The notes under the pieces were generated by a model that did not search any database, was not told the origin of the DNA, and saw only the letters and a program-made list of their open reading frames with translations. Both the position numbers and the translations under genes were made by a program. A stretch of 64,000 nt of DNA, from NCBI RefSeq assembly GCF_003334385.1, contig NZ_QOWN01000013.1; one strand, written 5' to 3'. Of the stretch, positions 13,008 through 13,650 are shown piece by piece; the first letter of the stretch is position 1, and every line of letters starts with the position of its first letter. The DNA is from Escherichia coli (lineage in GTDB: Bacteria; Pseudomonadota; Gammaproteobacteria; Enterobacterales; Enterobacteriaceae).

Positions 13008-13115
13008 ATGACGCTCGCGCAGTTTGCCATGATTTTCTGGCACGACCTGGCAGCACCGATCCTAGCGGGAATTATTACCGCAGCGATTGTCAGCTGGTGG
13101 CGTAACCGGAAGTAA
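13008..13115 (+). CDS. ldr: Ldr small toxic peptide (type I toxin), 35 aa
   Basis: ATG at 13008 encodes MTLAQFAMIFWHDLAAPILAGIITAAIVSWWRNRK then TAA; below the ORF-track size cut-off. Confidence 0.88.
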   Translation: MTLAQFAMIFWHDLAAPILAGIITAAIVSWWRNRK

Positions 13116-13159
13116 GGTGAAAACGGGCGTCAGGCTGCCGTGATGGCAATATGCGCCCG

Positions 13160-13190
13160 AAACCGGCCGCAGGGGTAACAGCCTGCGGCC
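13160..13190 (+). terminator. Rho-independent terminator after ldr copy 1
   Basis: gccgcagg-ggtaacag-cctgcggc hairpin followed by atttttgt. Confidence 0.7.
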
Positions 13191-13428
13191 ATTTTTGTCT
13201 TTATCTCTTCCACAAGTAAATATTGGCAACCCGAGCTGGAAGCATCATCCAGAGCACTCATGAAACGACTGCAACAGCTGTTGAAAAGCCGGAATGTACT
13301 CTTTATTGCAAACATTTCAGGGATGAAGTGAAGATGAATTGAGACGTAGTATCCACACCAAGCCGGAATTATCCGGTGAGGCGCAATGTTGCGGGGGCTT
13401 TATCCCTGGTGGCATTGGTTGCTGGAAA

Positions 13429-13495
13429 GAGAAAACCCCCGCACGTTGAGAGGTAAAACCTGACAACAGAACGGGGGCTAATCTTGAAACCAGAC
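13429..13495 (-). ncRNA. rdl: Rdl antisense RNA (type I antitoxin), copy 2
   Basis: Same position relative to ldr as copy 1; boundaries approximate. Confidence 0.55.
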
Positions 13496-13542
13496 ACTTC
13501 AAGAATAGCCGCAAAATGTTGTCATTACAACAAGGCGGCTAT

Positions 13543-13650
13543 ATGACGCTCGCGCAGTTTGCCATGATTTTCTGGCACGACCTGGCAGCACCGATCCTAG
13601 CGGGAATTATTACCGCAGCGATTGTCAGCTGGTGGCGTAACCGGAAGTAA
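13543..13650 (+). CDS. ldr: Ldr small toxic peptide (type I toxin), 35 aa
   Basis: ATG at 13543, same 35-codon ORF as copy 1, TAA at 13648-13650. Confidence 0.88.
   Translation: MTLAQFAMIFWHDLAAPILAGIITAAIVSWWRNRK

Follow-up and report, generated by a model that had tools for sequence, protein, structure and literature searches.

A 64,000-nt stretch of Escherichia coli contig NZ_QOWN01000013.1 (the window; positions are counted from its first nucleotide) carries two tandem copies of the known E. coli ldr/rdl type I toxin-antitoxin module in the chaA-kdsA interval, each with a 35-codon toxin gene, ldr, and a small antisense RNA, Rdl, complementary to the leader of the ldr mRNA. The ldr/rdl locus is already known, and nothing new is added here on ldr/rdl itself; the side analysis of how the module may work is of some value because reviews still call the mechanism of Rdl unknown. 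Based on the window and on homologues from related genera, a conserved fold of the mRNA and a 20-codon upstream frame, designated ldrX, are proposed to belong to the module too, as a refinement of its description. The ldr/rdl identity and a hok/sok-like way of working, taken together as one explanation, are regarded as highly probable.

Two ldr/rdl units in the chaA-kdsA interval

The two 108-nt ldr open reading frames (ORFs) are identical in DNA and are both translated as MTLAQFAMIFWHDLAAPILAGIITAAIVSWWRNRK. A preliminary description of this DNA had predicted one and the same Ldr toxin from 13008-13115 and 13543-13650, and the ORFs were found at exactly those coordinates; the peptide equals LdrA/LdrC of E. 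coli K-12 residue for residue and matches the Pfam family Ldr_toxin (PF13940) end to end, with residues 1-35 on model positions 1-35 (E=1.8e-24), which bears out the assignment. The solved structure of LdrD (PDB 5LBJ) is also matched by the peptide at E=1.5e-10, and the RefSeq annotation of strain PSJ-23, which is collinear with the window, lists "type I toxin-antitoxin system toxin Ldr family protein" at precisely these two positions. Members of the Fst/Ldr superfamily are about 30-35 residues long and are recognized by a transmembrane helix with a PxxxG motif and by a tryptophan next to a charged C-terminus (PMC7472228); the peptide carries P17-I-L-A-G21 and, before its basic C-terminus, W30-W31-R-N-R-K. 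An hmmscan search of the 35-residue peptide against NCBIfam gave no match, which is attributed to a limit of that library or of its filters because the Pfam match is strong. In the ORF list with a minimum of 20 residues, the ldr ORFs appear with 44 codons, beginning at an in-frame ATG 27 nt before the start of the 35-codon form (12981-13115 and 13516-13650). The ATG at 12981 was rejected as the true start of ldr, as it is without a Shine-Dalgarno sequence and is confined to E. coli units of the A/B/C type; the ATG at 13008, preceded by AAGGCGG, is invariant in all 52 of the aligned homologues described below.

According to a passage of PMC8309996 that cites Yamaguchi 2014, LdrA, the peptide of which is identical to that of the window, is toxic on overexpression in K-12 and is located in the inner membrane. 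LdrA causes a drop of ATP within 2 min, followed by arrest of macromolecular synthesis, and LdrD causes rapid killing and nucleoid condensation, from which cells are rescued by co-expression of RdlD (PMC8309996, PMC4147584). By analogy, the Ldr peptides of this strain would also be toxic and reside in the inner membrane.

The antisense RNAs had been placed at 12894-12960 and 13429-13495 in the preliminary description, and the covariance-model search with Rfam RF01813 (rdlD) located them at 12895-12960 and 13430-13495, 1 nt shorter at the 3' end; the annotated rdlA/B/C of K-12 themselves range from 66 to 68 nt, which covers this difference. The whole model (positions 1-66 of 66) is matched in both cases, rdl-1 scoring 84.3 bits (E=2.6e-16) and rdl-2 91.4 bits (E=3.6e-18) against a gathering score of 50. 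At the 3' end of rdl-1 (window 12899-12900), GGGGGGUUUCU replaces the GGGGGUUUUCU of K-12 rdlC and of rdl-2. By this single A-to-C change on the plus strand, the U-tract of the terminator becomes shorter and the outermost pair of the stem is lost; with it the Rfam score is 84 instead of 91 bits, and strain PSJ-23 does not have it. The changed base also sits in the 3' strand of the large helix of the ldr leader. Each Rdl takes the fold of the Rfam consensus, in which a 5' tail of 16 nt stays free and a stem-loop forms the terminator (z=-3.7 for rdl-1 and -4.5 for rdl-2), and the terminator scan gave a terminator-like stem with a U-run for Rdl on the minus strand. Over the segment from 48 to 113 nt upstream of the ldr ATG, Rdl is the full complement of the mRNA leader, and it overlaps neither the Shine-Dalgarno sequence nor the ORF of ldr (Rdl at 12895-12960, Shine-Dalgarno sequence from 12997). 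In K-12, rdlD is expressed as an unstable transcript of ~60-66 nt that represses Ldr (PMC4147584, PMC7373196), and by analogy rdl-1 and rdl-2 are probably expressed and repress Ldr in this strain.

The two units form a direct repeat with a spacing of 534-535 bp, with 99% identity in a stretch of 300 nt and 81% in the 205 nt before it (repeat families D1 and D2), and this repeat and the PF13940 match of the peptide are well beyond chance. Tandem repeats of ~530 bp with one ldr and one rdl each, situated between chaA and kdsA, are the arrangement of an LDR array. The LDR-A/B/C array of K-12 has the same flanking genes, the same unit of ~535 bp and the same order of parts, but consists of three units at the chaA/kdsA site, whereas the window has two. 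The K-12 array between kdsA and chaA is said to go back to Kawano et al. 2002. Between unit 1 and the K-12 ldrC unit there are only two differences in 535 positions. The left part of unit 2 equals K-12 ldrB up to ~13498 and its right part equals ldrA from ~13568, the ldrB-to-ldrA switch being placed inside 13499-13567. The two-unit array is consistent with a K-12-like three-unit array from which one unit was lost by unequal crossing-over between B and A; the opposite history, a duplication in the K-12 lineage, could also account for it. In strain PSJ-23 the second Ldr peptide has T9 and S29, so its ldrB/ldrA switch lies between codons 9 and 29 and the junction differs between strains. Arrays of one, two and three units occur at the chaA/kdsA locus of E. 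coli, and every one of 5426 complete E. coli genomes contains one ldr/rdl unit or more, the median being four. The two-unit array with its B/A hybrid junction would be a further case of copy-number change via unequal recombination.

Conservation, transcript and fold of the ldr mRNA

Homologues were retrieved with a leader/Rdl pattern, which gave 45 loci from GTDB species representatives of seven genera (Escherichia, Salmonella, Citrobacter, Klebsiella, Kluyvera, Pseudocitrobacter and Pluralibacter) and, together with plasmid matches, 66 distinct units; 52 Ldr-type mRNAs from Escherichia, Salmonella, Citrobacter, Klebsiella, Kluyvera, Pseudocitrobacter and one further enterobacterial genome were aligned. 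The 35-codon ORF, the conservation of which in related genomes had been made a touchstone of the preliminary description, is kept at exactly this length in 52 of the 52 homologues, across seven genera. These encode 44 distinct peptides with M1, W11, L14, A16 and P17 invariant, and the codon-position entropy of 0.79/0.38/1.01 is a coding-type pattern. The ldr leader is more conserved than the ldr ORF, and conservation extends over the whole mRNA of ~372 nt. The conserved block at 12826-13197 starts 7-8 nt downstream of a TAGTAT/TAGAAT hexamer and ends with an intrinsic terminator, and its length of 372 nt, with both ends predicted, agrees with the earlier estimate of ~370 nt for the ldr mRNA. 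Most of ~60 units have TAGAAT, TAGTAT or TAGGAT upstream of this block, at a constant distance. A generic sigma-70 scan of 12550-13850 gave no promoter at the 9-of-12 threshold, so the ldr and rdl promoters were read from conserved hexamers; the putative rdl-1 promoter scores 8/12, under that threshold, and its hexamers are kept in homologues as TATTCT/TATCCT and TTGTAA/TTGCAA. Promoters and transcript ends are predicted in this way.

The three longer minus-strand ORFs over the repeats, which had been called artefacts of the repeated sequence, were likewise rejected as genes. The ORFs of 95 and 65 residues correspond to one sequence present in both units. A substitution at residue 27 is their first difference, and a frameshifting 1-nt indel takes them out of register after ~40 residues. 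Most of the 52 homologues have TCG in place of the TTG start and six have a start codon there, and many run into a stop within 5-19 codons in this frame. The 61-residue ORF crosses the unit junction, and its counterpart in unit 2 has only 25 residues. None of the three has a match in NCBIfam (hmmscan) or a RefSeq annotation. For annotation, ORF callers with a size cut-off miss 35-codon toxin genes and give spurious antisense ORFs over the repeat, and covariance-model and small-ORF searches are the remedy for the genes missed.

A consensus fold was computed with RNAalifold on the aligned homologues, and pairs were counted on an independent MAFFT alignment of the 52 sequences. In this fold, a series of leader hairpins, the last of which is the target of Rdl, is followed by long-range helices 9-11, in which the region of the ldr Shine-Dalgarno sequence and start codon pairs with the 3' untranslated region (UTR). 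Helices 9-11 are 94%, 98% and 88% paired, and six of their pairs changed on both sides; the ldr Shine-Dalgarno sequence (12997-13003) pairs with 13133-13139 in helix 10 and is 98.5% paired. Helix 2, which closes the mRNA by 5'-3' pairing, is 99.7% paired across the 52 sequences, and because it is nearly invariant, covariation is silent on this helix, neither for it nor against it. The loop and the 5' arm of the Rdl-target hairpin are complementary to the 5' tail of Rdl, four of the six pairs in its upper stem show compensatory changes, and the hairpin folded alone reaches -16.7 kcal/mol (z=-5.4). Five pairs with compensatory changes were found in the terminator helix 17.

Over the whole consensus structure, 92.7% of the cells are paired, compared with 36-49% when the 3' partners are slid by 1-3 columns. 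Pairs changed on both sides number 27, against 9-17 in the slid controls, and such cells 158, against 21-64; shuffles reached the observed values in 0 of 500 cases on four of five measures and in 59 of 500 for further pair types. Since the structure was derived from the same sequences, it is favoured against the slid controls, and the compensatory changes are the stronger evidence. The ldr-1 mRNA of the window, folded alone, takes the same architecture (-161 kcal/mol, z=-5.3). A fold that would bury the ribosome-binding site of ldr in the 3' UTR is supported by these calculations. A sequestered Shine-Dalgarno sequence of the toxin and an fbi-like closure of the mRNA through 5'-3' pairing, both features of hok-type mRNAs, are indicated by prediction and covariation.

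The ldrX frame, the hok/sok parallel and the probable action of Rdl

In both copies of the window, ldrX starts with TTG and ends with a TGA that overlaps the ATG of ldr as ATGA. A Shine-Dalgarno-like GGGGG stands before ldrX-1 at 12938-12942, and start and Shine-Dalgarno sequence are both inside the Rdl-complementary segment, as in an upstream frame targeted by an antisense RNA. A TTG or GTG with a purine-rich Shine-Dalgarno sequence was found at this site in 52 of the 66 units, and from it the frame invariably remains open as far as the start of the toxin. In 36 units, that of E. coli ldrD among them, it shares the frame of the toxin, with a predicted product of 55 residues; in 11 units it is shifted by +1 with the ATGA overlap (the window copies, K-12 A/B/C, S. 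enterica arizonae/diarizonae and C. amalonaticus) and in 5 by +2. The experimentally characterised ldrD/rdlD (structure 5LBJ) shares architecture, 35-residue toxin and Rfam family with the units of the window, and its DNA is ~79% identical over the mRNA, but its locus is a different one, next to bcsG. Owing to one additional base in front of the Shine-Dalgarno sequence, the upstream TTG and ldrD share a frame, for a potential product of 55 residues, whereas the window copies are +1 with ATGA. The comparative data on ldrX are compatible with a translational coupling to ldr, without amounting to proof.

A hok/sok-like coupling, in which the translation of Ldr depends on that of ldrX and is blocked by Rdl, is given, by analogy, somewhat better than even chances. 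Passages of PMC4147584 and PMC8167048 attribute ldrX and such a coupling model to Gerdes and Wagner, and the 20-codon frame of the window fits their description. Each 535-bp unit would produce a plus-strand Ldr mRNA of ~372 nt and a minus-strand Rdl of 66 nt. In the full-length mRNA, the ldr Shine-Dalgarno sequence and start codon would be paired with the 3' UTR and the 5'-3' helix would close the molecule, which would leave it stable and poorly translatable. Ribosomes could then reach ldr only via initiation at the upstream TTG (12949 and 13484), from which the ldrX frame would lead into the ldr start, through the ATGA overlap in the window and, in the majority of other lineages, through in-frame fusion. 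Rdl may pair, by its single-stranded 5' tail, with the loop and the 5' arm of the target hairpin, which holds the Shine-Dalgarno sequence and the TTG of ldrX, and may then zip up. This pairing would block initiation at ldrX and hence the synthesis of Ldr, and the duplex could become a substrate of RNase III. Once Rdl is exhausted, Ldr would be made and inserted in the inner membrane, and ATP and macromolecular synthesis could collapse.

The hok/mok/sok system (plasmid R1; chromosomal hokC/mokC/sokC) resembles ldr in its structured leader, in an antisense RNA with a single-stranded 5' tail aimed at the hairpin of the upstream frame, in the sequestration of the toxin Shine-Dalgarno sequence and in the 5'-3' pairing that closes the mRNA. 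Like the majority arrangement of ldr, mokC and hokC are in frame, with a common stop codon. In contrast, the toxins are unrelated, Hok having ~50 residues and Ldr, of the Fst/Ldr superfamily, 35, and the 3' pairing partner of ldr lies upstream of the terminator hairpin and not at the extreme 3' end. For ldr, the hok-type dependence of toxin translation on the upstream frame and an activation by 3' processing are proposals so far (PMC4147584). On the other hand, Fst of the par system of pAD1 (Fst/RNAI-RNAII) is a toxin of the same superfamily as Ldr, but its regulation involves convergent transcripts with a common terminator and direct repeats, whereas the antisense RNA of Ldr overlaps divergently in the leader (PMC7472228).

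The Rfam family RF01794 bears the name "sok antitoxin (CssrC)", but it is the sense strand of the K-12 hokC mRNA leader that it matches, with 118 bits (L054 in our set of loci, 502-654, minus strand), and its last three positions are the ATG of hokC; it is therefore a model of the hok leader and not of Sok. Both ldr leaders align to the full length of RF01794, ending on the ldr ATG (12859-13010 and 13393-13545, plus strand), at sub-threshold scores of 25.3 and 29.3 bits, and they are the only RF01794 matches in the 64-kb window at E<=1. The sub-threshold match recurs in units from Salmonella, K. aerogenes, Lelliottia and Leclercia. In the register of this model, the 5' ends of Rdl (12960) and SokC both fall at position 106 and both RNAs reach back to ~46-47; the TTG of ldrX is at 95-97, 2 nt from the AUG of mokC at 97-99 and in the 5' arm of the same hairpin, and the Shine-Dalgarno sequences GGGG and GAGG coincide at 84-87. 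A reverse model built from 31 ldr leaders had the hokC leader as its best non-ldr match in 56 kb, over the full length and ending on the hokC ATG. By analogy, the leader alignment supports the view that ldr works like hok/sok and weakly supports a common ancestry. That the ldr leader/Rdl cassette is an evolutionary relative of the hok leader/Sok, possibly a portable regulatory module, is put forward tentatively, with chances slightly short of even. If this is true, Sok would have its counterpart in Rdl, mok in the frame opened by the upstream TTG and the hok fold in the long-range sequestration of the Shine-Dalgarno sequence, and the in-frame TTG of most lineages predicts a 55-residue pro-form like MokC-HokC. 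The fold that sequesters the ribosome-binding site and the correspondence to hok/mok/sok point to concrete mutations for testing the coupling model. Parts of the fold and of the hok parallel may be in print already.

In all, the leader/Rdl cassette stands before at least three kinds of small hydrophobic ORF; those not recognizable as Ldr occur in L006 (567-776, Lelliottia plasmid), L007 (507-779, Leclercia plasmid), L010, L022, L041, L043, L045 and L047, the two plasmid cassettes L006 and L007 scoring 45-50 bits with the Rfam rdlD model. A 30-residue peptide of the type MTF(K/R)EAL..VVTS..GP..VAL..HF (MTFREALVIAVV...) follows the cassette in Kluyvera, Lelliottia and another enterobacterial genome, and a peptide of 48-51 residues of the type MDFLKAV...H.VAPL.VRY.E follows it in Leclercia and Pluralibacter. 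A Pfam search of these 30-residue and 48-51-residue ORFs gave no match.

Several points weigh against the coupling of Ldr translation to ldrX and against the kinship with hok. Retrieval by the leader/Rdl pattern inflates the apparent conservation of 12893-12977; the leader at 12838-12892, outside the pattern, is still 87-96% conserved. In 14 of the 66 units, among them every Klebsiella unit and some from Kluyvera (Klebsiella L004, L019, L025, L037, L038 and L052; Kluyvera L012, L029 and L034), there is no ATG, GTG or TTG at the ldrX site. The start-less units keep the 35-codon toxin ORF and, by compensatory changes such as that of CUUGAA/UUCAAG to CUCGA/UCGAG or CACUAAC/GUUAAAG, the target hairpin, so that the conserved element may be the structure and not the small ORF; in these units either coupling may be dispensable or another initiation codon may be used. 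The third-position periodicity of the ldrX frame is not significant (p=0.08), and selection on the ldrX peptide is not claimed; its conserved residues coincide with the rdl promoter and with bases fixed by the retrieval pattern. The RF01794 scores of the ldr leaders are below the gathering score of 59, which means that the ldr leader is no member of this family, and the hokC match of the reverse model is weak (11.3 bits, E~0.06 with rough calibration). In the literature, the mechanism of Rdl is called "currently unknown" in a 2021 review (PMC8309996), and the ldrX idea "needs further work" (PMC4147584).

Other modes of action were considered for Rdl. It could act mainly through destruction of the mRNA, the 66-bp duplex being cut by RNase III with no involvement of ldrX coupling. 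The perfect complementarity of Rdl to the leader and an RNase III product of ~21 nt, captured in abundance where rdlD and ldrD overlap (PMC7373196), are in line with such cleavage, as are the Klebsiella units, which keep Rdl and toxin without an ldrX start codon. In rnc mutants, however, the half-lives and levels of ldrD/rdlD are only slightly raised (PMC7373196), a cut at least 48 nt upstream of the ATG by itself leaves the coding region in place, and the sequestration of the ldr Shine-Dalgarno sequence by a covarying long-range helix is left unexplained; destruction of the mRNA as the principal route is regarded as unlikely. Alternatively, Rdl may remodel the structure or block a ribosome standby site in the manner of tisB/istR-1, with ldrX never translated. 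Ribosomes would then load on the unstructured leader and slide to the sequestered ldr Shine-Dalgarno sequence, and Rdl would remove the landing site or lock an inactive fold. Because the target of Rdl takes in two hairpins as well as the 3' strand (12894-12909) of the large leader helix, binding of Rdl must refold the leader; compensatory changes preserve the target hairpin also in units that have lost the TTG, and the lack of significant periodicity in the ldrX frame also fits. Yet the TTG and the G-rich Shine-Dalgarno sequence are kept in 52 of the 66 units, the frame is always open to the toxin start in three frame relationships, and the position-for-position match to mok/Sok favours coupling, so a low probability is given to action at a standby site as well.

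It might also be supposed that the repeats are decaying or selfish sequence, without a working toxin or antitoxin in this strain. Deletion phenotypes are unreported for loci of the Fst/Ldr family (PMC7472228), the copy number at the chaA/kdsA locus varies from one to three, and the U-tract of the rdl-1 terminator is altered. Against this, both ORFs are intact and identical to the peptide that is toxic in K-12 (PMC8309996), both Rdl copies are well above the Rfam gathering threshold, and seven genera share the length of the ORF, its coding pattern and the fold of the mRNA; with one unit or more in every one of the 5426 E. coli genomes in addition, decay is considered very improbable.

Feature coordinates and further observations in the window

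The positions of the features discussed above are collected in Table 1.

Table 1. Positions of the ldr/rdl units, their RNA elements and neighbouring features in the window
Feature	Position	Strand	Evidence and remarks
LDR unit 1, chaA-proximal	12658-13191	+	repeat families D1, D2; counterpart of K-12 ldrC/rdlC unit
LDR unit 2, kdsA-proximal	13192-13733	+	comparison with K-12 units; K-12 ldrB (left)/ldrA (right) chimera
ldr-1 toxin ORF, 35 codons	13008-13115	+	sequence identity (K-12 LdrA/LdrC), Pfam, RefSeq in collinear strain
ldr-2 toxin ORF, 35 codons	13543-13650	+	sequence identity (DNA equals ldr-1), RefSeq in collinear strain
ldr-1 Shine-Dalgarno sequence, AAGGCGG	12997-13003	+	read in sequence
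rdl-1 antitoxin RNA, rdlC-like	12895-12960	-	Rfam RF01813; one change in 3' U-tract
rdl-2 antitoxin RNA, equals K-12 rdlB	13430-13495	-	Rfam RF01813, sequence identity
rdl-1 promoter (putative)	12967-12995	-	read in sequence; -10 TATTCT 12967-12972, -35 TTGTAA 12990-12995, 17-nt spacer
-10 box of ldr-1 promoter (putative), TAGTAT	12813-12818	+	conserved hexamer; copy 2 at 13347-13352
ldr-1 mRNA (predicted ends), 372 nt	12826-13197	+	cross-genus conservation limits and terminator
ldr-2 mRNA (predicted ends)	13360-13732	+	homology to copy 1, terminator
ldr-1 intrinsic terminator	13165-13197	+	scan match 13165-13190, then T-run; helix 17
ldr-2 intrinsic terminator	13700-13732	+	scan match 13700-13725
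ldrX-1, TTG start, 20 codons	12949-13011	+	ORF list; TGA overlaps ldr ATG (ATGA)
ldrX-2, TTG start, 20 codons	13484-13546	+	ORF list; ATGA overlap
5'-terminal hairpin, helix 1	12828-12843	+	compensatory changes in 3/5 pairs
5'-3' closing helix 2, GGCGCA with UGCGCC	12846-12851 with 13152-13157	+	in consensus and single-sequence minimum-energy fold
Large leader hairpin	12854-12909	+	consensus fold
Small hairpin	12910-12932	+	consensus fold
Rdl-target hairpin, helices 7 and 8	12939-12977	+	consensus fold
Long-range helices 9-11 (ldr Shine-Dalgarno/ATG region with 3' UTR)	12983-13005 and 13010-13018 with 13123-13150	+	consensus fold
3'-UTR anti-Shine-Dalgarno segment	13123-13157	+	pairs with ldr Shine-Dalgarno sequence, start codon, upstream region and 5' GGCGCA
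Minus-strand ORF, 95 residues	12692-12979	-	ORF list; rejected as gene
Minus-strand ORF, 61 residues	13130-13315	-	ORF list; rejected as gene
Minus-strand ORF, 65 residues	13317-13514	-	ORF list; rejected as gene
chaA, flank of LDR array	11504-12604		RefSeq annotation in collinear strain
kdsA, flank of LDR array	13799-14653		RefSeq annotation in collinear strain

The longest ORF of chaA extends over 11417-12604 on the plus strand (395 residues), and the RefSeq start of chaA in the collinear strain is at 11504 (366 residues); the first 29 codons of the longer ORF are probably untranslated. No tRNA genes were found in the 64-kb window. A sub-threshold match to Leu_leader (RF00512) was obtained at 26112-26270 in the ychF-ycgV intergenic region, with 31-33 bits against a gathering score of 50; as both strands match, the site looks like a palindromic repeat or a terminator rather than a leader. 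Furthermore, the small RNA family C0299 (RF00119) of Rfam has a full-length match at 52110-52188 on the minus strand, with 111.9 bits (E=2e-21).

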